A DNA stretch of 64,000 nt from a virus: the IMG/VR virus record IMGVR_UViG_3300010399_000034, positions 1-64,000 of that record. One strand, 5' to 3'. The translations under genes were made by a program, and so were the position numbers. The notes beneath the pieces are model-generated. The model was not told where the DNA came from. It made no database searches and worked only from the letters and a program-made list of their open reading frames with translations. Of this stretch, positions 1 to 52,216 are shown in pieces. Position 1 is the first letter of the stretch, and the number at the start of each line of letters is the position of its first letter.

Positions 1-246
1 ACGTCGCTCACGACCGCATCGCGCCTCTGCGACCTGATCGATCAAGCGGACACCTCGCAGGGCAGCAACCCGTCGGTCCAGGGCGGTCCGTCGGCGTGGG
101 AGCTCGCGGCGGCGCGCTCCGAGCTCGCGCGACTCTACTCGCAGCAACAACAGCAAGCGCCTGCGGGGATGGACTGGACGAAGATCGCAATCGGCGCAGG
201 CATCCTCGGCGCCGTCGGTCTCGCGGCGTACGTCATCCTGAAGTGA
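1..246 (+). CDS. Partial (5'-truncated) protein with C-terminal membrane anchor
   Basis: Frame +1 open from base 1 to TGA 244-246, ending ...MDWTKIAIGAGILGAVGLAAYVILK*. Confidence 0.75.
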   Translation, partial: TSLTTASRLCDLIDQADTSQGSNPSVQGGPSAWELAAARSELARLYSQQQQQAPAGMDWTKIAIGAGILGAVGLAAYVILK

Positions 247-251
247 ACGAA

Positions 252-1799
252 ATGGTCATCCTGAACGGCGGTCTCGGTGATGCTTCCTCGTGCGCAGGTC
301 GTAGCTGGCCTGCGCCGTTCATTCAGAAGCGCGACATCAAGGCCTGTCGTCCGCTGATGACCTACTACAACGTTCCGTGCACTGCGGAGGTGATCGAGTG
401 TCTCCTCTTTCGCAAGGAGAAGTTCCTCGACAAGCAGCGCCAGCTCCGTGCGCTCTCGGGTCAACGGCCGGCGGGCGTCGATGAGCGAATGCGCTGGCTC
501 AAGTCGATGGCGTCGCTCATCGACGGCGCGCTCGATGACACGAACCTCCTGAACGTGTGGATGATCGGCGGGACGCCTCCGACCGACTACAACACGAAGG
601 CAGCGCTCGCGTCGCTCCCCGGCGATCTCTGGGCGAACGGCAATGCGTTCGTCAATACAATGCTGCGCTCGGCGGTCGACCGCGGCTATCCGTGCGTCAT
701 CTTCCCCGCCGGCTTCGGGTTCGTTGGCGACGAGCCTGCGGTAATGGGCGACGGCTCAGTTCGGCCGTTCGCCTACTTCCCGATGTACCACCGCGCGACG
801 GACTTCGTGCAGGACGTGCGCGGTCGTCCGCGTGCGCCGGTTGTCGTCACGCCCGGCACCTCCGGCGTGCGCGGTCTTCGCGGGCTCGGCTTCGGCGATG
901 GTCCTGGCGGCGCAGTCGATCCGCGCTCGTTGTCGCTCACCGCACGTGCTGCGGCGGGGACGGCTGGCGCCCCGGGAACAACGGCCGCGGTTCGTCGTGC
1001 GATGCAGACGAAGGGGTGGTTCCTCAACCCATTCTCGCTCGCACCGGAGATCCTCGCCGAGCATTTGCGACAACATCCTGGCACCGGCCTCGTCGTCGGA
1101 TCGATCCGCGTGCTGACTGACGCCGAGCGAACGTTCTGGACAAACCTCGGCGCGACGCCGCGCACCGACACCCGCGATGGTGTTCGCCAGGATGGCTGGA
1201 TGCAGCTCATGGTCCCCGCTGCGGGCGATATCATGGACTACTACGCGGCCGTCGCGCGCGACATCCAAGAGACCGCCTTCGAGGTCTTCGTGCTCTACGG
1301 CATGGAGAAGTGGGCGCAGAACCTGATGATCTGGGCGCAGAACGGCCGCGTGCAGATGCCCGTTCAGCAGTTCGTCGACACGATTCGCACGATCAACACT
1401 GCGCGTCTTCGCGCGACGTCGGGCGCATTCTTCGGCGTCTCGGCTGGGCTCGCTTCGGCAGTCAATCCGGTCGCAGGCGCCGTGATGCAGATCCTCGGCA
1501 CTGCTGCCGACGCGCTCGTCGCCGCTGTCGGTGCGGGTGTTGGCGGCTGGAACTGTCCGCTTCCGCTCACGCGTCGCAGCGCATCGGGCGACTGCGACTT
1601 CACGCACATCCTCGGGCCCGGCGCGCTTGAGCAGTCAGAGCGCCAGCGCGGCGGCATGGTGGAGTACTTCACGACGCCGCATCCCGCGCCGAGTGCGCCG
1701 TCGACGACGAGCTCGAGCAAGCCGTCGACTACGTTGATCCTCGGAGGCGTCGCGCTCGTCGCTGCCCTCGGCATCGGATACGTTCTACTCTCGGAGTGA
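252..1799 (+). CDS. Putative virion protein with C-terminal membrane anchor
   Basis: ATG 252 just after the previous stop; S/T linker then LILGGVALVAALGIGYVLL; GGLG and LRGLG motifs. Confidence 0.75.
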   Translation: MVILNGGLGDASSCAGRSWPAPFIQKRDIKACRPLMTYYNVPCTAEVIECLLFRKEKFLDKQRQLRALSGQRPAGVDERMRWLKSMASLIDGALDDTNLLNVWMIGGTPPTDYNTKAALASLPGDLWANGNAFVNTMLRSAVDRGYPCVIFPAGFGFVGDEPAVMGDGSVRPFAYFPMYHRATDFVQDVRGRPRAPVVVTPGTSGVRGLRGLGFGDGPGGAVDPRSLSLTARAAAGTAGAPGTTAAVRRAMQTKGWFLNPFSLAPEILAEHLRQHPGTGLVVGSIRVLTDAERTFWTNLGATPRTDTRDGVRQDGWMQLMVPAAGDIMDYYAAVARDIQETAFEVFVLYGMEKWAQNLMIWAQNGRVQMPVQQFVDTIRTINTARLRATSGAFFGVSAGLASAVNPVAGAVMQILGTAADALVAAVGAGVGGWNCPLPLTRRSASGDCDFTHILGPGALEQSERQRGGMVEYFTTPHPAPSAPSTTSSSKPSTTLILGGVALVAALGIGYVLLSE

Positions 1800-5982: not shown

Positions 5983-6522
5983 ATGGCCAAGCGTAGGCGT
6001 CGTCGTCGGATTCGGATGCGCGGACTCGGGGCAATGGGTCCCGCGGCGCGCTCGCTCGTGCCGGTTGCAGCAGGCGGGATTCTTACCGCTGGCGTGACCC
6101 TCGGTCTTCGTGCGTTCCTACGGCCGGATCCGGGAACGTTGAGCGCGACGCTCTACCGCTTCGCTCCGTTGATCGGATCGGTCGCGGGGCTCGTCGGCGC
6201 GGGCGCCATGTACATGGTCGCCGGTCCGTCGGCGGGGCTCGCAGCGGGCCTCACCAGCGTCATCGGCGGCGGTGCGCTCTTCGGCGCGGAAGCGCTGAAT
6301 GCGGCGAAGCCCGGCGGTCTCCTCGCCGTCAGCGGCCCGACCGCGGCGCTTCCCGCGGGCGATGGCACCGCGGGCCTTCGTGCACTGCTCCCGCAGTACG
6401 GCACCGAAGGACTCGGCGCGATCGTCATGAGCCCTGTGGGCGACACCTACGGCGACAGCGTCAACGTCGCCGGGCTCGGCGCCGGCTACCGGCCCAACGC
6501 GTTCGGGAAGAACGCGTTCTGA
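5983..6522 (+). CDS. Multi-pass membrane protein with arginine-rich N-terminal leader
   Basis: AGGAG RBS; MAKRRRRRRIRMRGLG then 2-3 hydrophobic segments; further EGLG and AGLG. Confidence 0.75.
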   Translation: MAKRRRRRRIRMRGLGAMGPAARSLVPVAAGGILTAGVTLGLRAFLRPDPGTLSATLYRFAPLIGSVAGLVGAGAMYMVAGPSAGLAAGLTSVIGGGALFGAEALNAAKPGGLLAVSGPTAALPAGDGTAGLRALLPQYGTEGLGAIVMSPVGDTYGDSVNVAGLGAGYRPNAFGKNAF

Positions 6523-34232: not shown

Positions 34233-34637
34233 TCATGTGTCATCGCTGCACGGTGGGAGCCCGAGGACGCTGCGGACTTGTTCACGATCGCGCGGTTGTT
34301 CTTTCCACGAACGGGTTCGACTTGCGCGGTGGTGCTCGATGAACTCCTTGAACGAGCCGAAGACGAGCGCGCGATCGGGCTCGACCTTCGGTGCGTCTTT
34401 GAAGCGTGGAAGCTTCAGGACGTTGCGCGCGAGGATCAGCGAGCCGATGCAGTGCTCGCCGCGCTCGCGGCTCTCCCACTTCGTGAGCCACTCCGGATCT
34501 TCGTAGTCGATCGACTCGTGGCACGGGAGCGCTTCGTCACGTGCGATCGAGAGTGCGAACTCTTCGGGCATGGCTGCGCCGAGCCAGCCTGGCAACGACG
34601 TCCGGCGGAACGGGCAACTCCTGCAAGGCTTCTTCAT
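34233..34637 (-). CDS. Cys/His-rich protein (DUF6283-like)
   Basis: PCRSCPFRR...GW...LPCH...HCIGSL. Confidence 0.5.
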   Translation of the reverse strand: MKKPCRSCPFRRTSLPGWLGAAMPEEFALSIARDEALPCHESIDYEDPEWLTKWESRERGEHCIGSLILARNVLKLPRFKDAPKVEPDRALVFGSFKEFIEHHRASRTRSWKEQPRDREQVRSVLGLPPCSDDT

Positions 34638-35542
34638 GTCTCGAACTTCGAGAGCTTGCGGACGCCGTCCGTGTCGTAGCCGAGCTCGCGCAACGTAGAG
34701 ATGAGGCCGCGGACCTGCTTGGCGCGGCTCTCTTCGCCGAGGACCCAATGAAGGAGCGCCCGCGCGTCGTTCGAGAGTCCACCGAGGAAGTCCTCGTTCT
34801 CGGCGAGCTTGCGCAGGACGGCGGTCCCCGGGCGCGCTGCACGGACCTCGCCCGTGGCGTGTCCATTCCCGTTGCTCTTGCGCATCTTCGTCTGGCGCTT
34901 CGCTTCTTCGACGGTGACGCCGAGCGTGGCGTACTCCTCAGCCTTCTCGCGCTGCTGTTCGCGTGGCAGATCGCGCAGGGTCATGGCGGCGGTCTGCGAG
35001 AGCCGGCGGTCGTGAACGAGGCGCTGTACCTGATCGTCGAGGTCGAGCAGGTTGAGCAGCGTCTTCACGCTCGGAAGCGGCAGACCCATCGTGACCGCTA
35101 CGTCCTCTTCGGACCGCCCGAGATCGAGGTAGCGCTGCGCCTTGCGCGCCCGGATGATCGGCGAGTCGTCGACCCTGTTTTCGTTCTCGGCGAGCGTGAT
35201 CCCGAACGCGTCGCCGTCGCTCGTCCGCTTCACCATGCACGGGACCTTGATCGGCTCGCCGCCGGCTGCGACGAGGCGTTTGTTCGCTTCGCGTGCTCCG
35301 CGGACGCGTTGGCGGCCTGCGATGACCTCGACCTGTTCCCCGTTCTTGCGAACGAGCACCGGCTCGAGCACGCCATAGCACATGATGTTCTTGACCCACT
35401 CTTCGGTGAGTCCGAGATGGATCCGCTCGTCGTAGAGCGGGTGTTCGCGCCCATCTTTCGTGTCGAGCCCAACGATCGTCAGGTCGTCCGGGTCCATGCC
35501 GAACGCATTGAGCCTCGAGCCCTCGAGTGCCTGCTTAGCCAT
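34634..35542 (-). CDS. parB: ParB/Srx-family protein with HTH
   Basis: GVLEPVLVRK...VIAGRQRVRGA, LAENENR, GRSEEDVAVTMG HTH. Confidence 0.85.
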   Translation of the reverse strand: MAKQALEGSRLNAFGMDPDDLTIVGLDTKDGREHPLYDERIHLGLTEEWVKNIMCYGVLEPVLVRKNGEQVEVIAGRQRVRGAREANKRLVAAGGEPIKVPCMVKRTSDGDAFGITLAENENRVDDSPIIRARKAQRYLDLGRSEEDVAVTMGLPLPSVKTLLNLLDLDDQVQRLVHDRRLSQTAAMTLRDLPREQQREKAEEYATLGVTVEEAKRQTKMRKSNGNGHATGEVRAARPGTAVLRKLAENEDFLGGLSNDARALLHWVLGEESRAKQVRGLISTLRELGYDTDGVRKLSKFET

Positions 35543-36569: not shown

Positions 36570-37448
36570 TCATGCGTCCCTCATCTTCTTCCGGACCTGC
36601 CGGAGTAGCTTTGCCGACTCGAGCGCGGCTGCTTCGTCGAGGTAGCCGTCGGTCGTCTCGGGCGAGTCGTGGTTCAAGATCTTCTGAACAGCGAACCTGT
36701 TACCAGAGATCATGCCTGCTTGCAATGCTACGGTGCGACGAAGCCGATGCAAATAGATTCTGTCCTCGATGCCCGCAGCGGCCGCGAGCTCGTGAAGCTT
36801 GCGCCGACAGGCCTGATACGCTGCGCCGTTCGCGGTCCAGTCGTCCGTCTTGCTGACGGCCGTGGCGACGAGCTGACCTTCGCCGAGGCGATCGCGCAGG
36901 CGCTTCCATTCCCGCTTGGCGCCGAGCACCGAATAGACGATCGGCTTACTCCCCTTCACCACGATCCGTGTGATCCCGTCCTCGCGTGCGAATCCGGCAT
37001 CGATGACCCCAGCGTCGGTCCGCAGCACGTCCGAGACGCGCAGAGCCGAGCTGCACATCACGTCGATCACCCGGCCGGCCGTCGTCTCGTCTGCCTCTAC
37101 GAGTCGAAGGAACGGCCTCCACAGCTCGATCGGGATGGACACGGCCTCCTTGAGCCGCTTGGGCTCCTTGCGCCTCTTCCTCTTGCGGTGCGACGCCGGC
37201 TCGGGCGGGAGCTCGGCGGGCGGTGGAAGCCTGTTCCGGCGCCCCTCAGATTCGCAGAAGTCGGCCCAGAGGGCCCACGCCCAGCGGTAGTCACGCAGGC
37301 GCTTGCGGAGCATTTGCGAGGCCGGCGGGCTCGTCCCGTGGTCGCGCATCGTCCTCACGTCGTTCGCAGCCTTCCGCGCCGAGGTGATCGCCAGCTTCTC
37401 GCGATCGATCATCCACGCACGAAAGCGGTCGAGTGCTTCGGCGTTCAC
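36570..37448 (-). CDS. Tyrosine recombinase/integrase
   Basis: Catalytic set R (LRVSD), K (VKGSK), HxxR (HRLRR), H (LNH), Y (TDGY); GTG start overlapping the upstream stop. Confidence 0.85.
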   Translation of the reverse strand: MNAEALDRFRAWMIDREKLAITSARKAANDVRTMRDHGTSPPASQMLRKRLRDYRWAWALWADFCESEGRRNRLPPPAELPPEPASHRKRKRRKEPKRLKEAVSIPIELWRPFLRLVEADETTAGRVIDVMCSSALRVSDVLRTDAGVIDAGFAREDGITRIVVKGSKPIVYSVLGAKREWKRLRDRLGEGQLVATAVSKTDDWTANGAAYQACRRKLHELAAAAGIEDRIYLHRLRRTVALQAGMISGNRFAVQKILNHDSPETTDGYLDEAAALESAKLLRQVRKKMRDA

Positions 37449-37936
37449 TTGGCCCTCGTGTATTCGTGGCCGCTCTCGGTGAGCTGCCAGATGCTTCCAC
37501 CGCGATACGCGCCAACGGAGAATGCGAGATCGCGACGTTTGAGCGCGTACAACGTCGCGTGGTGAAACGACCGCACCGATCCGCCGTGATCGATCGCGCG
37601 AAGGCACGCGAGCTGCACCTTGTTCAGGCGCCACTGGCGCGGGCGTGGACTCCGGATCTCGACGACGCGCTTGGTGATCGAAGGCCCCATGCAGCAAAGC
37701 CGAGCTCGGCCGAAGAACGAATCGTTCAGCGCGCACGTGCGGATCGCCGTCGCCGCGTTCTTCTGTTGCGCCCAAAGCAGCGCGCAGCGGACATGGAACG
37801 TCCAGCACCCGAGCTGCACCGGGTTGAATGCGAGCTTCTTACAGCGATCGCACGGCACCATCTTGCGGACTTCGTGCGATGTCTTCGGGCGATCGCATCG
37901 GCACGGCCCTTCTTTGATTTTGAGCTTGGGCATCAC
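37445..37936 (-). CDS. Cys-rich protein with C-terminal winged-helix-like segment
   Basis: CDRC..., LYALKRRDLA...WQLTESGHEY. Confidence 0.5.
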   Translation of the reverse strand: MMPKLKIKEGPCRCDRPKTSHEVRKMVPCDRCKKLAFNPVQLGCWTFHVRCALLWAQQKNAATAIRTCALNDSFFGRARLCCMGPSITKRVVEIRSPRPRQWRLNKVQLACLRAIDHGGSVRSFHHATLYALKRRDLAFSVGAYRGGSIWQLTESGHEYTRAK

Positions 37937-38286: not shown

Positions 38287-38788
38287 GGTGCGCCCTTCTT
38301 CGCTTTGCGCTTCGCGCACATCGTTGCCGCATCGAAGCGGAGTTTGCGCGCCATCGTTTCGTGCTTCTCGGCACTCGCAATCTTCACGCAGATGGAGCAC
38401 GACTTTGGGCGGTAGACGCCGTCGGCGTGCATCCACACGCTTCGATGTGCGATGTGTCCGCAGCGCGGACAGGCGTGCTTTACCTTCGCCATTTGCGCGA
38501 CGCCGCTCACGCCCCGTCGTCCTCGTTCGTATGCTCGAGGAAGCGCGCTCGATCAGCGCTCTTGCGAATCTGCTCGCGCAGGCTCTTCAGCTCTTCGAGA
38601 TCGAGCGACCACTCGAGCAAGATCGGCGTGAGCAGATTCGTGATCGCCCCGCGGATTGCGGGCGTATGAAAGTCGATTCCGTGCGCCTCGCATTGCCGCT
38701 CCGCTGCGGCGAGCGCCTCATCCCGGCTCATCATGATCACCACCTCCATGCGATCCGCGAGCGTTCGCGGATCGGAGCAGGCTGCGAT

Positions 38789-39373
38789 CTACTTCAGAAG
38801 ATGCAGGAGCGCGCCGATCTTCTCGGCACGCTCACGCGCCTGCGCTGCGCGCTTGCTCGCGTTGCCGTTGGCGTATTCGGACAGGTGGCGCAGGATGTGC
38901 CCGACGATCGGGTTGATCTCGTATTCGCTTGCGACTTCCTGGATCGTGAGCTCACGCTCGGACGACTCCCACGCGGAGATCGATCCTTGCCAGCGCGACC
39001 ACGATCCCGTGTATTCGAGCTCTACGAAACTGCCGTCATCGCGAATGAAGAGATCGGTACCCTCGTACGCCCCGCTGTTGGAACGCGGATTGTCCTCGAT
39101 CGCGCCGGGCCATTTGTCCGAGACGCACATGCCACGCCACGCGGCACGCTTGCTGCTCTCGCGTTGCGAGTCCGTCGCTAGGCCCGTGCAGCGATATTCG
39201 ATCTTCGGCCGACTACACAACGCCGGTAGCGCTCCGCCGAGCTTGGCGATGACCGCTTCGAGTAAGAGCGCATCCGCTTTGTTCTCTTCGGCGATCGCGC
39301 TCACGAGCGCGACGTGCTGCGCCTCGACCGTCTTTGCAAGCGTCTCGATCTGATTCAACGTTTCGGTTTCCAT
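38789..39373 (-). CDS. Hypothetical protein
   Basis: GAGGAGG RBS; 194 aa. Confidence 0.65.
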   Translation of the reverse strand: METETLNQIETLAKTVEAQHVALVSAIAEENKADALLLEAVIAKLGGALPALCSRPKIEYRCTGLATDSQRESSKRAAWRGMCVSDKWPGAIEDNPRSNSGAYEGTDLFIRDDGSFVELEYTGSWSRWQGSISAWESSERELTIQEVASEYEINPIVGHILRHLSEYANGNASKRAAQARERAEKIGALLHLLK

Positions 39374-39420
39374 GGTGTCCTCCTCGAACGAATGCCGCGG
39401 CTCCTCACCGTGGCAAGCGC

Positions 39421-39476
39421 TTGATCTGCGCTCGGACAGCGCTCTCGCGTGAGAGCACCTACCGGCCGAAGATCAA
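39421..39476 (-). repeat. Conserved intergenic hairpin, copy A
   Basis: TTGATCTT CGGCCGGTAGG TGCTCTC-ACGC-GAGAGCG CTGTCC GAGCG CAGATCAA. Confidence 0.8.
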
Positions 39477-39721
39477 TCCTGTCGAGCGGCCTCCCGCCAC
39501 TGGTAGCGCTGCGTTGCTTCGTTGACCTCGAGTGCCGCATTGATGAGCTCGCTCATCGTATAGGTCCGTTGAAACCGATACGGCAGCGCATCGTCGAGCC
39601 GTCGCTCGGCTTGATCCGTTTCGCCCCAACCACCCTCAGGGCAGCCTACGAAGCTTCCGAGAGCTCGACGGATGTTCGGGTTGTTGAGCGCTTGATTGAG
39701 CGTCTGTTTCTTCTCGGACAT
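39473..39721 (-). CDS. Hypothetical protein
   Basis: GGGGAG RBS; MSEKKQ start. Confidence 0.55.
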   Translation of the reverse strand: MSEKKQTLNQALNNPNIRRALGSFVGCPEGGWGETDQAERRLDDALPYRFQRTYTMSELINAALEVNEATQRYQWREAARQD

Positions 39722-39732
39722 CGCTCCCCCTT

Positions 39733-40116
39733 TCACTCGCACGCTTCGGTGCACTCCGGCGATTCCAAGATCGCGCGGACGTTGACACAGTTGTCGCCCT
39801 GCTCCGCGAGCTCGCGTGCGCAGAACGCCACCGCTTCCGCATTGCAGACTCCGGCGAACGGGCACGCGACATCGCACTCGTTCGCGACCATTTCGCATGC
39901 CTCGGCCGTGTCGATCGTCTCGGGGCCCGCGTCGAGCGCCTGCCCGGCGTCCGCGCCCGAGTCGCAGTCGTGAAGGCACGTGATCGGATGCCCGTCGATC
40001 GGTTCGAGTTGCCCGGCGTCGTTCACGAGCTCGGGGCCCGCATCCGTTTCGGCAGGAACGTGACACACGCCGCATCCGCCGAGCATGAGCACGCACGCAA
40101 TCAAGAGTCGTCGCAT
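39733..40116 (-). CDS. Cys-rich lipoprotein with DAG repeats (myxobacterial style)
   Basis: MRRLLIACVLMLGGC lipobox; DAG x4; paired Cys. Confidence 0.65.
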   Translation of the reverse strand: MRRLLIACVLMLGGCGVCHVPAETDAGPELVNDAGQLEPIDGHPITCLHDCDSGADAGQALDAGPETIDTAEACEMVANECDVACPFAGVCNAEAVAFCARELAEQGDNCVNVRAILESPECTEACE

Positions 40117-40130
40117 TTGGAAACCTCCCA

Positions 40131-40216
40131 TGGAGCGCCCGGGGGCTCGAACCCCGGACACAGGACTCAGCATGCGATCTTCGCCGCAGCAGCCTGCATG
40201 CACCAACGTGCGCCCC
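40131..40216 (-). ncRNA. tRNA-like RNA with Ala-type acceptor stem and no D-stem
   Basis: GGGGCGC/GCGCTCC-A (G3.U70, A73); T-arm CCGGGG-TTCGAGC-CCCCGG. Confidence 0.6.
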
Positions 40217-40222
40217 GAAGAA

Positions 40223-40660
40223 TCAGCCTAGCCATTCATGCTTGAGGCTATACCCTCGCGCGTAGCACTCCGGCGTAGGCTTGTTGGCAGCCTTGAAGCT
40301 CCCGGACGTGGTCCGCTCCTCTCCACCGCCTTTCGATTCCGGATGAAGCGTCAGGCTCAGCTCGTGAACGAGCGCAAAGCCCATATCCATGCCGCACCCA
40401 CTGATGCCCACAGCTTCGCGTCGTTCGTCGAATCGATATCCGAGCGCCTTAGCTACGTTGTAGCTGAGCCACAAATGATCGATGCGGCCCTCATCTCCAC
40501 ACTTGAACACGTAGAGATCGATCGCGCGGTACATGCCCGAGCGAGCGACGTGCCGAAGGACGCACGTCACGACGGATCCGGGCGGAAGAATCTCCCGCAA
40601 GCGCTCGATCGCCTCTTGCCGCTCCGCTTCTTTCTCTTTCTTGCTCGCCACGATTTCCAC
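40223..40660 (-). CDS. Phage hypothetical protein
   Basis: LRHVARSGMYRAI...GCGMDMGF. Confidence 0.7.
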   Translation of the reverse strand: MEIVASKKEKEAERQEAIERLREILPPGSVVTCVLRHVARSGMYRAIDLYVFKCGDEGRIDHLWLSYNVAKALGYRFDERREAVGISGCGMDMGFALVHELSLTLHPESKGGGEERTTSGSFKAANKPTPECYARGYSLKHEWLG

Positions 40661-40670
40661 CCTTTCAGCG

Positions 40671-40729
40671 TTGAATCCCGCTCGGAGTCCGCGTGTCAGC
40701 TAGACGCGCGGCTACCGGCCGCTATTCAA
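40671..40729 (-). repeat. Conserved intergenic hairpin, copy D
   Basis: TTGAATAG CGGCCGGTAG CCGCGCGTC-TAGCT-GACACGCGG ACTCC GAGCG GGATTCAA. Confidence 0.75.
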
Positions 40730-40731
40730 TG

Positions 40732-41145
40732 CTACCCCTGCGCTGCTTCGATTTCTTCCCATGAATCAGGGTCCACGTAGGTGTCCACGAGGTACTCTTC
40801 TGCTTCCGCGTTCGTCTCGAACGGGCCCGCCCATTCGGTGCAGTCCATGTAACCGGAAGCGCTCAGCCGAGCGAAATAGCCGTGGACGTATTCCGCATCG
40901 GCAAGGCCCTCGACCCCGTTCGGATGATCGAGTTCATCCGGCGTCCCTTCGCAGTAGTCTTGCACCGCATCGATCGTCGGATAGCCGTGCTCTTGCGCCT
41001 TTTCGTCACCGATCAGATCGGCGGGGACCGTGTACGTTTCGCCACCATTGCAGCTCACAGCCCATGCGCCCATGAGCTCGATCTCGGGGGACATGAACTG
41101 CGCTTCCAAGTGCGCCATGCCCTTCGCTCGTTCGTTGTTGTCCAT
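40732..41145 (-). CDS. Acidic phage hypothetical protein
   Basis: GGGAG RBS; FARLSASGYMDCTEWAGPF. Confidence 0.7.
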   Translation of the reverse strand: MDNNERAKGMAHLEAQFMSPEIELMGAWAVSCNGGETYTVPADLIGDEKAQEHGYPTIDAVQDYCEGTPDELDHPNGVEGLADAEYVHGYFARLSASGYMDCTEWAGPFETNAEAEEYLVDTYVDPDSWEEIEAAQG

Positions 41146-41161
41146 CGTGTTCTCCCTTCGG

Positions 41162-41216
41162 TTGAATCCGCTCGGACGAACGCGAGCCGAGCTCGCGTCC
41201 TACCGGCCGGGTTCAA
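41162..41216 (-). repeat. Conserved intergenic hairpin, copy C
   Basis: TTGAACC CGGCCGGTAGG ACGCGAGC-TCG-GCTCGCGT TCGTCC GAGCG GATTCAA. Confidence 0.8.
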
Positions 41217-41986
41217 GCTTCGCAAACCTCCCACGCGCGTTTCGCAGGATCGGTCGGAGGCCTGTAGTGTCCCCCAGCGCAAAGCAGCCCGCAGCGCTTA
41301 CAGGTCCGGCGTGGCGACGTCCAGCGGCGCGCTACCGCCCAATAGGGCTCGACCAACGGATCATCGTCGAGCGCGCTCCATCCGTGGTACGACGCGGCCA
41401 GTTCGTACAGATAACAGACATCGCGCGGGAGTCCGCTCAGGGCCGCTTCGAAGATCTCCCACGGATCTTGATCCGTGTAACGCGCGATGCTCTCCCATTC
41501 GCACCAGTCGAGCGCGCTCCGAATGTCCTCGGGAGTTGCGCCTACGGGAACCCTGTAGACTTCGAGCCCCGTCTTTCGATACGCGCGCTGCTCCTCACGC
41601 GTGCCGTATTCGTCGCCGTCCGTTTCGGCGCCTTCGATCCCGGGCGTGTATTCGAGCATGAGCTCGCACCCGTAGCGCGAGCGGACCTTGACCAGCGCTC
41701 CGCCCCCGTGATCCTCGGGCGAGGTATCACCGATCCGCTCGATCACGGTCCGGCGTACACCGCGAGGCTTGCGCTCGTGCATGCCGACGAGGGAGGCGCG
41801 AAGCTCGCGCGCACGTACATCGCCACTCTCCGGGCGCCCTGCGACGTAGTCCGCGGGATCGCCCTTCGGCTCGTATCCGCCCGCTGCGCGCCACGCTGCG
41901 TAATCGCGCAGAGCCGCTCGCGCTTCGCTGTACTCACCACGAACGAACGCGCGTTGCGCGCGTTGTAGACATGCTTCCGGATCCAT
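41213..41986 (-). CDS. Hypothetical early protein
   Basis: GGGAGGGG RBS; MDPEACL start. Confidence 0.65.
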   Translation of the reverse strand: MDPEACLQRAQRAFVRGEYSEARAALRDYAAWRAAGGYEPKGDPADYVAGRPESGDVRARELRASLVGMHERKPRGVRRTVIERIGDTSPEDHGGGALVKVRSRYGCELMLEYTPGIEGAETDGDEYGTREEQRAYRKTGLEVYRVPVGATPEDIRSALDWCEWESIARYTDQDPWEIFEAALSGLPRDVCYLYELAASYHGWSALDDDPLVEPYWAVARRWTSPRRTCKRCGLLCAGGHYRPPTDPAKRAWEVCEA

Positions 41987-42004
41987 GATCAACCCCTCCC
42001 TTCT

Positions 42005-42060
42005 TTGATCTGCGCTCGCACGGTGCGCTCGGATGGAGCGCACCTAGCGGCCGTAGATCA
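42005..42060 (-). repeat. Conserved intergenic hairpin, copy B
   Basis: TGATCTA CGGCCGCTAGG TGCGCTC-CATCC-GAGCGCA CCGTGC GAGCG CAGATCAA. Confidence 0.8.
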
Positions 42061-42240
42061 CTCAAGATCGAAAGCGATCAACTCAGCCATCATGCCGGGG
42101 CGCTCCGCGTTCAGTACGCGGAATGCGGCCGCTTCGTTGACCGCATACGCGCTGAACGTCTCGCCGTCCGCGCACTTGTAGTAGTAGCGCGATCCGCCAC
42201 CGGCCTGCCGTGCGCGTTCCTCCTGAGTCTGCCGCTCCAT
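42058..42240 (-). CDS. Small early protein (first gene of leftward operon)
   Basis: AGAGGGG RBS; 60 aa. Confidence 0.6.
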   Translation of the reverse strand: MERQTQEERARQAGGGSRYYYKCADGETFSAYAVNEAAAFRVLNAERPGMMAELIAFDLE

Positions 42241-42288
42241 CCGATCCCCTCTTTCCGGCCGGCTTCCGCCGCGCTCGAATCCTAGTAT

Positions 42289-42304
42289 TGCATGCGGCGG
42301 GCCA
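42289..42304 (-). promoter_or_regulatory. Sigma54-like (-24/-12) promoter, leftward
   Basis: TGGCCCGCCGCATGCA = GG-N10-GC. Confidence 0.55.
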
Positions 42305-42341
42305 AGTCAGCTAGGCACCCTTGCTAGCTGACAAAAGGCCC

Positions 42342-42461
42342 TGTCGGACTATAGTCCGACAACGCGATCGGCCTCGAGCTCGCACCCACACCTACATGTA
42401 GCCCTGTGAAGAAAAAGGCCCTCAAACCGTGCCGATCCGGCCCAGACTACATGTAGGTGTG
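42342..42461. promoter_or_regulatory. Palindromic operator/enhancer cluster
   Basis: Perfect 20-bp palindrome TGTCGGACTATAGTCCGACA (42342-42361); 15-bp inverted pair CACACCTACATGTAG (42387-42401) / CTACATGTAGGTGTG (42447-42461). Confidence 0.65.
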
Positions 42462-42484
42462 AGCCGGCTCGGCGCGATCCAAGC

Positions 42485-42500
42485 TGGCACGGCGCTAGCA
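42485..42500 (+). promoter_or_regulatory. Sigma54-like (-24/-12) promoter, rightward
   Basis: TGGCACGGCGCTAGCA vs consensus TGGCACG-N4-TTGCA. Confidence 0.6.
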
Positions 42501-42513
42501 TTGTAAGGGTTCC

Positions 42514-42777
42514 ATGGAAGGCGGAACGGCGAGTAGGACGGTGTGGATCGAGCGGAGCAAGGTCTACCCCGCTCCCGGCTCGAACCCGCGCTATCAATGG
42601 CGCTGGATCTACCGCCTCCGTTGCGAGGGTTTCACCGGCCCGACCTGGACTATGCCGGACGGCCGCTCGGGTGCAGTGTCCTTCGAAGGGCAGACCCTCA
42701 GCACCATCCGCCAAACGGCGGCGAAGATCGCTCGCGAGCACGGCGCGGCCGTCCGCGAAGCATGGAAGGAAGGCTGA
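42514..42777 (+). CDS. Small early protein (first gene of rightward operon)
   Basis: ORF track; directly follows the promoter. Confidence 0.55.
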   Translation: MEGGTASRTVWIERSKVYPAPGSNPRYQWRWIYRLRCEGFTGPTWTMPDGRSGAVSFEGQTLSTIRQTAAKIAREHGAAVREAWKEG

Positions 42778-42779
42778 TC

Positions 42780-43430
42780 ATGAAGCGCTACAGCGAATGG
42801 TCCCCGAGTCCGCACGACACCAAGGGGCTCAATCTGCCGGACCGGCAGGACTGGATCGTGGTCCCCACGATTCGCGCGCGCGACTCGGGCCCGCTGGACG
42901 AGTCCAACTTCGCTGTGGCTCTCGCGACGCTCGGCGGCGAGAACGCCGGAGAAGACGAGAACGGCGAGAACGGCATGATCGAGACGCACTCGTTCAATCA
43001 CTGGGCGTGCGGATGGTTCGAGATCATCCTGGCTCACCCTTCGCGCGAGCTCGAAGTACAGGCGATCGCCGATCGGCTCGAAAACTATCCGATCTTGGAC
43101 GAGAACGACCTGTCGGAGCGTGAGCTCGAAGCAGAAGGGGAGGGATGGGAGAGCTACGCCCGGCGCGACGTCACGCGCAAGCTAGTCGAGGATTTCGGCC
43201 TCAGCGATGCGGCGGAAGCCTTGCTCGACGAATCGGGCGAGACGATCTACGCGGCGTTGATCTGCGGGCACCACTACTCGGAAGGGATCAAGACTCAGAT
43301 CCAGGTCGAGCACGACGACGAAGGGCCTCGCTTCGATACGGATCAACTCGATCCGATGACGCGCGAGGAAATGGCGTTGCTTCTTCGGCTCTGCCGCAAA
43401 GAGAAGCGCGCCGCGATGGCCAAAGTCTGA
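42780..43430 (+). CDS. Phage hypothetical protein
   Basis: AAGGAAGG RBS; RDS..LDESNF...FNHWACGWFE. Confidence 0.7.
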   Translation: MKRYSEWSPSPHDTKGLNLPDRQDWIVVPTIRARDSGPLDESNFAVALATLGGENAGEDENGENGMIETHSFNHWACGWFEIILAHPSRELEVQAIADRLENYPILDENDLSERELEAEGEGWESYARRDVTRKLVEDFGLSDAAEALLDESGETIYAALICGHHYSEGIKTQIQVEHDDEGPRFDTDQLDPMTREEMALLLRLCRKEKRAAMAKV

Positions 43431-43506
43431 TCTTCGCGTTCGCTCCGGCGCACGAGTCCTACTCGTGCTCCGCGTGAGACTGCGAAGTCTGAAGGGAAGG
43501 GTTTCA

Positions 43507-43932
43507 ATGCGTGGGATCAAGGTTCCGAGCGCGGCGCGGCTCTGCACGGCGTTCCCGCAGCTCGAACGTGAGCAAGCTTTGTTGATCCGGAAGCTCGCGC
43601 ACGTGCGCGATGAACCGGAACGGCTCGGCGCATTGCTCGAAAAGGAGTGTCCGGAAACGGACGCGTATCGGCGCCGCTGCTACAACGATCCGCTCGATTC
43701 ACGGATGTGGCGCACTACGCTGGTGCTCCATGCGATCGATCTGATCCTCGGAACGTCCGGCGTAGAAGTCTTGGGCGAGCCCGAAGATTTCAGATCGGCG
43801 CCTCCGTACGAATACTGCAATACCGGCGATTCGTACGGCACGACGTTGGTCTACCACCGCGACGCGGACGCGATCCGGATCGGAAGCTGGGCTGACATCG
43901 CAGAACGGATGCCCGAGAAAGGCGAGGGTTGA
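43507..43932 (+). CDS. Phage hypothetical protein
   Basis: AAGGGAAGG RBS; YCNTGDSYGTTL. Confidence 0.7.
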   Translation: MRGIKVPSAARLCTAFPQLEREQALLIRKLAHVRDEPERLGALLEKECPETDAYRRRCYNDPLDSRMWRTTLVLHAIDLILGTSGVEVLGEPEDFRSAPPYEYCNTGDSYGTTLVYHRDADAIRIGSWADIAERMPEKGEG

Positions 43933-43934
43933 TC

Positions 43935-44237
43935 ATGGACTGGAAACAACGACACACCGAAGCTATGCGCGCTCCGCGTGGACGCGAGCTCGCGATCGTC
44001 CGCATGCTGCAAGCGTGGGAGCTGTACCGCGAGCAGCACCGACAAGCCTACGAATCCGGGATCGGAGATGACGGCGTGCTCGGGCCCGAATGGGCGGCAA
44101 TCGGTTTCGCGATCCGCGGACTCCTGAACGGAGATTGCGGACGCTTGGACTGCGGCACGATCGACGGCGGGATCTGCGACGCGCTTACCGCCGAGGGCTT
44201 CGATCCGTACATCGAGGGCGAACGTCTACCGCGTTGA
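43935..44237 (+). CDS. Phage hypothetical protein
   Basis: GAGGG RBS; IGDDGVLGPEW...LLNGDCGRLDCGT. Confidence 0.65.
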   Translation: MDWKQRHTEAMRAPRGRELAIVRMLQAWELYREQHRQAYESGIGDDGVLGPEWAAIGFAIRGLLNGDCGRLDCGTIDGGICDALTAEGFDPYIEGERLPR

Positions 44238-44288
44238 ATCTGGCCGCTAGGCGCTGAGTCATGCTCGGCGCCGTGCGAGCGGAGTCAA
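44234..44288 (+). repeat. Conserved intergenic hairpin, copy E
   Basis: TTGAATC TGGCCGCTAGG CGCTGAG-TCATG-CTCGGCG CCGTGC GAGCG GAGTCAA. Confidence 0.8.
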
Positions 44289-44307
44289 CAACAGAAGGGA
44301 AGGGTGC

Positions 44308-44745
44308 ATGAACGAGCGAGATCTCCCGCGCACGCCGCGCAAGCGGCCGCGCCGAACGGTCGAGAAGAAGCTGCGCGAGCTTCGCGCGGACGAGGTTACG
44401 TTCACGCTCGAGATCGAGCCGGAATGCGAGCCGTATGTCGGGAACTGCTCGGCGATCGATCCCGAGACGGATCGCGAGCAAGAGGACTGGATCCGGCGCG
44501 AGCTCGACGCCGGCAACGTCGCCGCATGGTGCTCGGTTGTCGTGCGAGCCACATGGGAAACGCCTACCGGCCGCACGATCGTCGGGATCGCTTCCCTTGG
44601 CGCGTGCTCCTACCGCAGCGTCATGGAGATCCGCCGCGAGCTGTATCCAGAGATGTGCGAGAACGCTCTCGACGATCTCAATCGCTCGATCGGAGCAATC
44701 TTCGATTCCGCGGATGCGCTCCGCAACGCGTTGAAAGAGGTCTAG
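44308..44745 (+). CDS. Phage hypothetical protein
   Basis: AAGGGAAGG RBS; AWC.VVVRA...G.ASLGACSY. Confidence 0.65.
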   Translation: MNERDLPRTPRKRPRRTVEKKLRELRADEVTFTLEIEPECEPYVGNCSAIDPETDREQEDWIRRELDAGNVAAWCSVVVRATWETPTGRTIVGIASLGACSYRSVMEIRRELYPEMCENALDDLNRSIGAIFDSADALRNALKEV

Positions 44746-44747
44746 CC

Positions 44748-46547
44748 GTGCACCTTACAATCTACGCGCGCAAATCCGAGAACGAGCGGCCGAAGGACCG
44801 GCCGATCCACGTCCGGAAGCACGGCGCGTTCGCGACGTCTGCGGGCGGAGGGCCGTCGTACCCGGCGACCGTATCGCTCCGCTTCGAGCTCGAAGAAGAA
44901 GCGAAATGGGGCCATCCCGTCGTCTGGATCAGTAACATGTCCGCGGATGAAGCGGCCGAGCTCGGGAGCATGCTGCTCAACGCAGCCGATCGCGCTCGCG
45001 CGCTCGCACGAGGGGAGAAGTAGCCATGGATCGCAACGCTGCTGATTACGATCGATACCACGGGCCGGACGCGCGGGAGAAGCCCGCTACGATCAAGGTC
45101 GAGATCGAGATCGACGAATCAGAGGTCATGGCGTGCATCGAGTCCGCGCTCGGGAGTCACACCTACGGGATCGGCTACTGGGGCGAAGTGAAGTACGGAG
45201 AACACGCGACGTGCGTCCGCGAGCGCGAAGACGAGGAGGATCCCGAAGTGCCGGGACCCTGGCGCGCACTCGACGATGCTGCGATCAAGCGTGGTCTCGC
45301 CGTGCTCGCGAGGATTCAACCCAAGCTCTTCGGACGATTGCTCGCCGGACAGGGCGATGGACCGCTCGGCGATCTCTTGATCCAGTGCGCGCTATTCGGA
45401 GAGGAGCGTTACGGATGAGCCGGAAGATCGTTCACACGATGAGCGACGGAACGAGGATCGAGCTCGAACGCGAGGCGTACGTCTCCGTCATTGCAACAGA
45501 CGCGCGCAGCGCGCTCGCGTTCTTCGGATTCCGCCCTGGCGAAGCGTGGGCGGTCGACGCCGGCCCGCCGGCCGATCCGCACCGCTGGAAGCCGAACGCG
45601 CGCCGCTGGCACGTGTACCGCAACAAGGGGGACATGCCGTCATGAACACGCTCCCGCCGCGCCGAGCTACGTTCGGACGCTGCCACGCGTGCAAGGTGAT
45701 CTGGCGCTGGCCGAGTCACAAATACGCCCGTGTGCGCGATGCGCACTGCCCGCGATGCGGCACCAAGCTCGCACGGACTGCCGAAGCGCTCGTGAAGCGC
45801 ATTCCCGTTGTCGATGGAACGCCAACCTTTCGCCGGAGCATGCTCGGATGAAAGACGAAGATCGCAGACCGCTCGCGCAGATCGCGCGTAGCATCGAGCT
45901 CCGCCGCGCCGAGATCCTCTTTCCCGGAGGTGGAGCCGGGCCCGAAGGCGATGCGTCACGAGACGCATCGGAGTGTCCGCTCGCCGAGCAGCACTATCTG
46001 CTCGCGCTGAGCGCGCTCGAACAAGCCGAACGCCATTTCCTCCTTGCTGCGACGTTCGCCACACGCGCGATCGCGGAGAAGCAGGGCCGTCGATGAAGGT
46101 GACTGCTGAAGGCATCGAGCTGACCGGCGATGAAGTCGCTACCGCGATCGACGCCTATCTCGTGGCGCACAACGTTCACGTGAGCGGGCCGCGCACGATC
46201 CGCGTCAATGGCGAGCTGTGCAAGACCGGGCTCGTCTACGTAGACCCATCGGGGTTCGTCAACTACGACGGAGAGATCTTCCGGACCATGAGGCAACGAT
46301 GACAATCTGGCTTGCATGGGACCACGAGCACCACGTCGGGCGCGGTGGAGTCCTCGAGATCTTCGCCTCGCGCGAAGCGGCGCTGCGCTTCCTTCAGGAG
46401 CGCGTTGCCGTCCTCGTGGACTCGTGCGGCTTCGAGCTCGAATACGCGCGAAGCGAATGGCGCCTCGCTGAAGCGGAGCTTCAGTCGTCGGGACGATACG
46501 TCTTTCCGAGCGCCGTCATGCCTGGAGCATGGGCCTCGTCCGGTTGA
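44748..46547 (+). other. Run of seven small translationally coupled hypothetical genes (44748-45023, 45026-45418, 45415-45645, 45642-45851, 45848-46096, 46093-46302, 46299-46547)
   Basis: Successive ATGA overlaps; 45642-45851 has a CxxC..CxxC Zn ribbon. Confidence 0.6.
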
Positions 46548-50731: not shown

Positions 50732-52216
50732 TCAGAGATGCGACTCGAGAATGTACGCAGTGATGTCGTCGACATCGCCAGGAGAGAGGATGAACGCCTC
50801 CCAGTTCGGATCGCCGAAGGCACGCAGTGCGAGCGCGACTTGTTCGCTGCCGACCGCCACCGCGTCGACCTGATCGTGCACGGTCGCTTCCACATTGTCG
50901 TGCAAGAAGCGCTGCCGATGCGAGACGCCGCGCAGGGTCGCGATCATGAACTGTGGAAGCGCAACGCCTGGCGACAAGCCGCACGAGGCGGGGACCTCGC
51001 CACACGGATCCCCGGTGCGCAGCGGACGCCCCGGATCATGCGCGTGGATAACGAACTCACCTGCGGGCGTCGCGAAGCGGTACGTGCGGAAGGGCAGCTC
51101 GGCCGTCGGTTGCAGCCCGCCCATCGCCGACGTGCGGTGAAGGCAGACTAGGCCGACGCCCGGGTAGTCGATAGGACCCTCCATGTCGACGTACGGCGCG
51201 CAGGTCCCGCTCGGACCAGGGGGCTGTCCGTTCGAACACGGGCATCCACCAGACGGGAGCGGCGGATACGGCGGCTGAAGCGGGTTGAACGGTGAAGTAC
51301 GCATCATCATCGGACCGCCGTGGCAGCTCGCGCAGAAGCCACGATGCGCCATGTCCGTGCTCAACATGGGTTGCTCGATCAAGAACTCGCGACCGCGCAG
51401 ACACGCTGCCGTCGCGTGCGGAGGGCACTCCGGCGGACCGGGCTCCGCGCCACCACGCGCCATCTCCGCGAGCTCGGGCGAGCTGAAGAGCGAACGCTGG
51501 AAGTTCGCGATGTCCGTTCGCTGCTGAGCGGTGAACGGGATCGTCGGCTGGAAGTGATCGTTGAGCGCGCTCCCAGCTTGATGCGCAAGCTCGAGCTCCC
51601 GCCCATCCCACATGATCCCGCCTCCGCGGTGATAGCCGAGCGGCGCGGTGCCGGGCTCCTTGAGCGCGACATTCAAGACGTGCGGTGAGGAGCGCCGTAC
51701 GATCACCTGGATACGGCCGTCGGGCAGCATGGTGATGTCGGGGTCGGTCCCGAGCTCGTCCACCGTAACGTTCGGCGGCAGGATGACCGGGATGCGGATG
51801 AGCGCGTGATCACGCAACACCGAGAAGTCGGCGCCCACGCCATCGTTCGAATCGATCGACCTGAAGAGTGGGTCCGTCGGGTCGACTGCAAAGACGGCTT
51901 GCGCAAACTCGTCGCTCAGATCGAACGTCGCGTGCTCCTGGACGAAGTGTGCCCCAGTCAACGCAGCGAGAAGCGGCGGCTGCCCTTCCATGATCCCGGT
52001 TCGATAACCGATGTTGAATGCACGCTCGACGGTCGTATGACACGACGCGCACGCGCGTCCATTCGTCCCGGGAGGCGAGTTATTGAAGAGCGCCCGTCCT
52101 CTCGCGATGCTCGCCAGCATCGACAGGTCGAGATCAGCCTCCGTACGATCGACAGGACCCGGATCCGCACAACCGCAAATCAACGCAGCTACTAGTGTCA
52201 ACAAGACTTGTCGCAT
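50732..52216 (-). CDS. Di-heme cytochrome c peroxidase/MauG-like lipoprotein
   Basis: LICGC lipobox; two CxxCH (ACASCH, FCASCH); MWDGR; TLRGV...FLHD. Confidence 0.8.
   Translation of the reverse strand: MRQVLLTLVAALICGCADPGPVDRTEADLDLSMLASIARGRALFNNSPPGTNGRACASCHTTVERAFNIGYRTGIMEGQPPLLAALTGAHFVQEHATFDLSDEFAQAVFAVDPTDPLFRSIDSNDGVGADFSVLRDHALIRIPVILPPNVTVDELGTDPDITMLPDGRIQVIVRRSSPHVLNVALKEPGTAPLGYHRGGGIMWDGRELELAHQAGSALNDHFQPTIPFTAQQRTDIANFQRSLFSSPELAEMARGGAEPGPPECPPHATAACLRGREFLIEQPMLSTDMAHRGFCASCHGGPMMMRTSPFNPLQPPYPPLPSGGCPCSNGQPPGPSGTCAPYVDMEGPIDYPGVGLVCLHRTSAMGGLQPTAELPFRTYRFATPAGEFVIHAHDPGRPLRTGDPCGEVPASCGLSPGVALPQFMIATLRGVSHRQRFLHDNVEATVHDQVDAVAVGSEQVALALRAFGDPNWEAFILSPGDVDDITAYILESHL

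Follow-up and report, generated by a model that had tools for sequence, protein, structure and literature searches.

Why should one hairpin stand again and again between the early genes of a phage, in the sense of those genes and on both arms of a divergent early region? The question was raised by the first 64,000 bases (the window, as the whole stretch analysed is called here) of the IMG/VR virus record IMGVR_UViG_3300010399_000034 (86,806 bases; G000 below), a genome of soil metagenome origin with a 123-base direct terminal repeat and about 63% G+C, in which an earlier note had pointed to five copies (A to E) of such a hairpin. The five elements appear to be copies of a structured RNA within two divergent early polycistronic messages, and the hairpin makes up a new sequence and structure family that is absent from Rfam. 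By analogy, its kind would already be known from the repeated intercistronic punctuation of T7; its unusual trait is a fixed double-loop core common to phages without detectable shared proteins. We tentatively read it, with confidence a little short of even, as a strand-specific RNA punctuation element that would be bound or cut by a putative host factor, most likely RNase III among the candidates.

Model R1, a covariance model of the five G000 copies, found exactly five copies in the 86.8-kb record, at 61.8 to 75.6 bits; the next five matches (13.1 to 17.4 bits) were the opposite strands of the same copies, the remaining window gave at most 11.4 bits, and no further copy was found by the R1 search in the last 22.8 kb of the record. 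A two-box pattern had four matches in the window versus none in 100 shuffles, and a slightly looser two-box pattern had five in the whole record versus none in the backwards-read control. When folded by minimum free energy (MFE), the five copies lay between -28.8 and -37.0 kcal/mol, with z scores between -3.3 and -6.1, and none of 200 shuffles was as stable. All five copies were thus present where the earlier note had placed them, and all were co-oriented with transcription on both arms, as it had claimed. The 9-mer GGCCGSTAG alone displayed no enrichment (35 matches with at most one mismatch versus 30.2 expected); two more exact GGCCGGTAG 9-mers, at 6486-6494 and 44564-44572 (-), lay outside the hairpins and were consistent with chance.

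Copies beyond G000 were collected with a second covariance model (R2, from 16 matches) after viral, genome and metagenome collections had been scanned by pattern, which was the form of search used for the public collections as a whole. The resulting family comprised 31 distinct copies, spread over at least 9 uncultured contigs, viral or from soil: five in G000, 10 in G001 (all on the minus strand at 77.5-86.0 kb of a record of 86,416 bases, which had terminal repeats and was rated 100% complete), three plus one weak match in G003, one in G004, two in G006, seven in metagenome contig Ga0126379_10000183, and one in each of three short soil contigs. True members scored 36-67 bits with R2 (28.0 bits for one short-stemmed G006 copy), and foldless pattern matches reached at most 32. 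A loose pattern scan of viral contigs returned more than 113 loci, almost all of them chance; in 100 loose-pattern loci, R1 gave five matches at E ≤0.1 and R2 gave no match at E ≤0.001. The G000-type pattern yielded two viral contig matches, neither of them model-confirmed, and no close G000 relatives were found via its 257-amino-acid (aa) protein.

The sequence comparison was extended to all 31 distinct copies, fitted to the model as alignment A5, and a common anatomy emerged from foot to apex: (i) the P1 foot (UUGAW/WUCAA in G000) and then a short irregular stretch; (ii) P2, composed of 2-4 bp (YR/YG); (iii) loop 1, a 2x2 internal loop with 5'-GC-3' facing 5'-AG-3'; (iv) P3, of exactly 3 bp and covarying; (v) loop 2, a 2x2 internal loop with 5'-UA-3' facing 5'-(C or G)U-3'; and (vi) P4, usually 8-12 bp of free sequence, closed by an apical loop mostly of 3-5 nucleotides (nt). 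The length came to about 22-28 stacked steps, about two helical turns, in the MFE folds and the covariation-supported structure. Unpaired G13, C14, U18, A19, U100 and G105 were identical in 32/32 rows, and A104 in 31/32. In one G003 copy (6298-6400, -, in its locus), some 51 additional bases stood where the apical loop would be, with a possibly branched top, and the apical part therefore tolerates large insertions.

Standard pairs filled 92.2% of the A5 cells, versus 64.4% after shuffling (0/500 shuffles reached the observed value) and 29-42% with slid partners, and changes on both sides were seen in 17 of 18 pairs (18 of 20 with two extra foot pairs). The P3 middle pair was GC in 15 copies, CG in 11, AU in three and UA in two, and the P2 closing pair was GC in 25, AU in five and GU in one; since this closing pair covaries, the 2x2 form of loop 1 was favoured over the bulged-A register preferred by RNAalifold, which recovered P3 and P4 independently. 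Pair variants recurred across several lineages. Apical stems that change in sequence and keep their pairing, together with conserved internal mismatches, had been claimed from the five G000 copies, and both statements carried over to the larger alignment. Within the helices, 21 G.U cells were counted versus 6 A.C cells, and the hairpin lay on the coding strand of its neighbours in all 25 copies (25/31) that were checked against open reading frame (ORF) maps, including copy E on the other arm. These strand data would suit an element that is recognised in the transcript; a form of single-stranded DNA in the same sense may suit them too.

Among the G000 copies, the most alike pairs were A/D and C/E, with C and E on opposite arms, and B was the most diverged, its loop 2 being UAG/ACU. 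A swap from GG/CC to GC/GC had been assigned to copies B and E and needed correction: it occurred in D and E, and A, B and C had GGCCGG...TCCGAGCG. The looser hairpin that the earlier note saw at about 43432-43477 (+) as a similar element was rejected as a member; it gave no R1 match, could not be aligned and folded weakly (z -2.6, 3/200 shuffles as stable), and it was an ordinary intergenic hairpin.

G000 and the other carriers had no detectable protein in common. G000 and G001 gave 0 blastn matches, the best E value for 603 G000 ORFs against G001 was 2.9e-4 (tblastn), an all-against-all blastp of five records gave no pair involving G000 at E ≤1e-4, and a neighbourhood-restricted protein search at E ≤0.05 gave short matches only, which were judged chance. 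Cultured phages provided distant tblastn matches for one G000 protein (<46% identity) and one G001 protein (<38%). G001, G003 and the Ga0126379 contig were related to one another, and their AAA ATPase gene (38-50% identity) had a copy upstream in 3/3, with the same core and different apical stems; the hairpin at this site was kept over long divergence. The other copies in these three flanked non-homologous small ORFs, and a 459-aa gene was flanked by copies in G001 and found elsewhere without copies in G003.

Rfam 15 gave 0 window matches at gathering scores, and the six weak matches obtained in 39000-44600 at E ≤10 included none on the hairpins. None of the papers listed in a literature search on stem-loops between phage early genes and on RNase III dealt with the motif. 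Mimicry of rRNA was considered and rejected: R2, run unfiltered over 24.7 kb of rRNA operon sequence from three bacterial genomes, did not exceed 12.3 bits. An 11.6-bit match in a 23S gene carried the core letters and was dropped because its halves, compared with the L1-stalk/H79 region, fall in different rRNA helices.

The features of the early region are collected in Table 1. The earlier note had each copy start at or next to the upstream stop codon and end before the next ribosome-binding site (RBS). The stop part was borne out in 5/5 copies, a TGA lying inside P1 in four of them (A, C, D and E) and a stop standing beside the foot of B. The RBS part was borne out in 5/5 as well; in four copies a GAAGGGAG-type Shine-Dalgarno sequence began 2-7 nt past the hairpin, and copy A had a more distant start codon. 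In the wider family, a Shine-Dalgarno-like tetramer stood at most 24 nt away in 25/31 copies, as judged by a crude regular expression. A consensus scan of 38700-44800 found one promoter-like site, CTGACA-16-TATAGT at 42328-42355 (+) in the divergent gap, and six terminator-like sites, all outside the hairpins; it found neither a promoter nor a T-run terminator inside any hairpin, and the hairpin is neither a promoter nor an intrinsic terminator.

Table 1. Hairpin copies, operons and ORFs in the divergent early region of G000
Feature	Position	Strand	Score, fold or product	Context
Hairpin copy A	39419-39478	-	R1 71.2 bits; MFE -33.2 kcal/mol, z -4.7	Foot holds TGA of ORF 39473-39721; next start codon (39373) 46 nt downstream
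Hairpin copy B	40669-40731	-	R1 61.8 bits; MFE -28.8 kcal/mol, z -3.3	TAG stop of ORF 40732-41145 ends one base before hairpin; RBS AAGGGTGG after hairpin
Hairpin copy C	41160-41218	-	R1 68.8 bits; MFE -32.0 kcal/mol, z -3.8	Foot holds TGA of ORF 41213-41986; RBS GAAGGGAG 2-3 nt after hairpin
Hairpin copy D	42003-42063	-	R1 75.6 bits; MFE -35.1 kcal/mol, z -6.1	Foot holds TGA of ORF 42058-42240; RBS AAGGGAGG after 3' end
Hairpin copy E	44232-44290	+	R1 68.7 bits; MFE -37.0 kcal/mol, z -5.7	Rightward arm; foot holds TGA of ORF 43935-44237; then RBS GAAGGGAAGGG, ATG at 44308
Leftward early operon	38789-42240	-		From ORF lists; interrupted by D, C, B, A
ORF	42058-42240	-	60 aa	First gene of leftward operon
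ORF	41213-41986	-	257 aa	
ORF	40732-41145	-	137 aa	
ORF	40223-40660	-	145 aa, phrog_12365	
ORF	39733-40116	-	127 aa, lipoprotein-like signal MRRLLIACVLMLGGCG	
ORF	39473-39721	-	82 aa	
ORF	38789-39373	-	194 aa	
Rightward early operon	42514-44745	+		Holds copy E; ORFs 42514-42777, 42780-43430, 43507-43932, 43935-44237, 44308-44745
Divergent control gap	42241-42513		One sigma-70-like site, several palindromes	

In our favoured reading, a host factor would recognise the two fixed loops on a double-stranded scaffold. If this factor were RNase III, it would cut within or next to an internal loop, as it does in the early region of T7, and the long early transcript would come apart into units with a protective hairpin at the 3' end and a short leader before a strong ribosome site of their own, whereby each accessory gene could be expressed and stabilised independently. 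RNase III was ranked first among the candidates because the hairpins agree with the T7 early sites in place, size and layout; the sites R0.3, R0.5, R1, R1.1 and R1.3 between the T7 early genes were reportedly described by Dunn and Studier in 1983. In both systems, hairpins about two turns long and interrupted by internal loops recur between the cistrons of an early polycistronic message, in the sense of that message, which in T7 is made by the host polymerase, and the T7 copies, too, are related to one another in sequence and structure within the genome (compared by layout only). The difference is that two small symmetric loops are invariant here across protein-unrelated phages, and that cleavage here is predicted only. 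A length of about 22-28 stacked steps is that needed by a double-strand RNase. An RNase III domain was found in 0/5 carrier records, and a host enzyme would therefore be needed for RNase III cutting; because of this result and the lack of shared proteins, the factor was taken as not phage-encoded, as far as searched.

Several points weigh against this reading. Bacterial RNase III has weak sequence specificity, and it is not known to need fixed letters; seven invariant letters across protein-unrelated phages exceed what generic RNase III would need and thus point to a more sequence-specific partner, which the fixed loops could equally mean. The strict G001-type pattern had 34 loci in representative bacterial genomes, the best of them scoring 31.7 bits with R2, and no host counterpart was found there; five of those genomes were also searched whole (150 first-look candidates scored per genome) and gave the same two weak matches only. 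The copies inside one genome are, moreover, duplication relatives, and the covariation cells of A5, an alignment itself fitted to the model, are not independent events. Two of the options offered in the earlier note, an RNase III-type processing site and a protein-binding cis RNA, fit alike, both being suited by a strand-specific, co-oriented and intercistronic helix that is irregular, spans about two turns and combines covarying stems with invariant loops; cleavage and binding are both predicted only.

The protein-binding option, taken alone, says that the hairpin is an operator for a sequence-specific RNA-binding protein, either of the host or a small fast-evolving phage protein, that would control translation of the next gene, mRNA life or anti-termination, with no cutting. 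We regard this as possible and, on the whole, unlikely. The seven loop letters stay invariant in 31-32/32 rows while every helix varies, as is typical of protein-recognition sites, and the RBS is close to the hairpin; there was, against this, no candidate protein common to the carriers and no Pfam RNA-binding domain in the 20 G000 proteins tested. Lambda-type nut sites consist of boxA plus boxB, occur once per operon and are read by an arginine-rich N-type protein, the boxB loop being conserved. They resemble the present element in that RNA hairpins occupy either arm of an early region with divergent operons, the nut ones being read in cis during transcription, and differ from it in that up to 10 copies per operon occur here, with fixed internal loops and apical loops that vary in sequence and length. 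An operon normally needs its anti-termination loader once and not ahead of most genes, and apical loops that vary are unlike boxB; no clear arginine-rich motif was seen by eye in the first small early proteins. A passive role (stabilising the mRNA without any factor, blocking 3' exonucleases or hindering ribosomes from reading through) or that of a small self-cleaving ribozyme would be in keeping with the high stability of the hairpins (-29 to -37 kcal/mol), and UGA in the foot plus UAG in loop 2 would place stops in two frames. A passive role does not need seven invariant unpaired letters, no Rfam ribozyme family matched even at E ≤10, and two 2x2 loops 3 bp apart would make a very small catalytic core, so that we give this explanation a slim chance.

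Two further explanations would make the hairpin a site of DNA exchange. According to the option of an integron-like system in the earlier note, the hairpins are attC-like folded single-stranded DNA sites at which a tyrosine recombinase encoded nearby (36573-37808, -; copy A is 1.6 kb away) would shuffle gene cassettes. The layouts are indeed similar: an attC site also has unpaired letters in a conserved foot, ends in a structure that varies and follows the stop codon of its cassette, and the present hairpins stand after stops and before RBSs. The attC core sites R''/R' are RYYYAAC ... GTTRRRY, whereas the feet here are YGACCYRGCC...GAGYGGGCC, or UUGAW...WUCAA in G000, and are not attC core sites. 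PF00589 occurred in 1/5 carrier records, that of G000; the other four lacked the recombinase, among them that of G001, rated 100% complete, with its 10 copies. The G000 recombinase itself scored 34 bits versus a cut-off of 220 for the Xer-type model, its generic Xer-like matches lay below cut-offs, and the integron-integrase model was absent among the matches listed for it. The copies are divided between the arms (four minus, one plus) in accordance with transcription and do not make one single-orientation array beside a recombinase gene and attI, and we consider the integron-like system very improbable. Hairpins of the kind of repetitive extragenic palindromes (REP) with their associated tyrosine transposases (RAYT), or of IS200/IS605, would be near-identical, with a conserved tetranucleotide at the foot and a Y1 transposase; (G or C)UAG precedes the apical stem here, but the apical stems differ within one genome.

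In the other explanation, the hairpin is a portable module boundary whose flanks serve mainly as short homologies for swapping accessory genes within and between phages, with any RNA role secondary; it would account for a family in phages without shared proteins, for the non-homologous small ORFs flanked in related phages and the 459-aa gene placed differently in G001 and G003, and for the likeness of A to D and, across the arms, of C to E. The promoter early stem-loops (PeSLs) of T4-type phages reportedly act in this manner; they are composed of a promoter and a terminator-like stem-loop and flank small variable early genes in hyperplastic regions (PMC2839356, PMC4122927). Both are repeated regulatory motifs that flank small variable early genes, but, unlike the PeSLs so described, the hairpins contain no internal promoter-like or T-run terminator site in any copy. 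The conserved runs cover just about 9-13 nt per side, short for homologous exchange, and selection on a folded single strand, needless for plain homology, is marked by the covarying helices, by strand specificity and by G.U cells outnumbering A.C cells; a mere boundary seems rather improbable.

The nearest published analogue in layout is the start-associated sequence (SAS) with its extended form (ESAS) in Cluster K mycobacteriophages, which are repeated one-orientation elements in larger intergenic gaps before start codons (Pope et al. 2011, PMC3203893). According to that text, an ESAS joins a conserved motif with the RBS to an inverted repeat that is imperfect and varies in its middle, and it is absent from the host genome; the authors found little support for an mRNA hairpin (PMC3203893). 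The start-proximal layout is analogous to that seen here; the strong covariation of the hairpin family sets the present element apart from the ESAS as described there. The Cluster K 13-mer SAS, GGGATAGGAGCCC in that source, was not present, and in the same place G000 had GAAGGGAG and G001 had YCUGAGAGGAG, an analogous arrangement of different sequence. This start-associated motif followed nearly every G001 copy 9-25 nt later, often as CCGCUAYCUGAGAGGAG, before ATG. R2, run unfiltered on TM4 1-50000, gave a best match of 15.3 bits (E 0.09, minus strand), versus at least 36 bits for family members (28.0 for one G006 copy).

Pfam families were absent from 7/7 proteins of the leftward operon, 1/7 had a PHROGs match, and none of the rightward operon proteins tested had a Pfam family; the 127-aa lipoprotein-like protein looked cysteine-rich (judged from the DNA by eye) and had no family match. 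Within the divergent gap, a perfect 9-bp-stem palindrome (42341-42362) overlapped the sigma-70-like site, and a 15-nt inverted repeat (42387-42401 / 42447-42461) carried CTACATGTAG in each arm; the palindrome and the repeat look like putative operator sites. Left of the hairpins, a ParB-family protein (ParB_N plus HTH_ParB; 34637-35542, -) adjoined the tyrosine recombinase, a pairing that suggests a temperate or plasmid-like lifestyle. About 30 nt (about 40131-40160) of the gap 40119-40222 (-) resembled a tRNA T-arm plus 3' acceptor strand, and this piece could be the attP core for the recombinase; ARAGORN found no tRNA in the window, and a search of 401 Myxococcota genomes with the piece gave just 27-33-nt matches in 2/401, which was uninformative. 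The first ORF of the window (96-1796, +; 567 aa) had no Pfam family. A 494-aa protein (50735-52216, -) had weak matches to di-haem cytochrome c peroxidase (CCP_MauG) and cytochrome c, unusual for a phage.

To return to RNA punctuation, it is possible, though we offer this as speculation with the chances against it, that one sequence-specific factor, in the simplest case a host protein with no link to phage mRNAs so far, is addressed by the two invariant loops, and that the hairpin is a portable expression handle moving with accessory-gene cassettes between protein-unrelated lineages of one host. If true, this would make it a cis-regulatory code common to phage lineages rather than an RNase III site peculiar to one of them. 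Small genes of no known function abound in the early regions of phages, and expression from a long transcript is understood for few model phages; a well-defined RNA family with seven fixed unpaired letters provides a ready mutant set for cleavage or binding assays. Its presence in protein-unrelated phages suggests that early regions in soil phages are shaped by a host factor, or by an exchange of cassettes that carry their punctuation along, and, if the partner were found, the motif could mark shared host range among uncultured phages.

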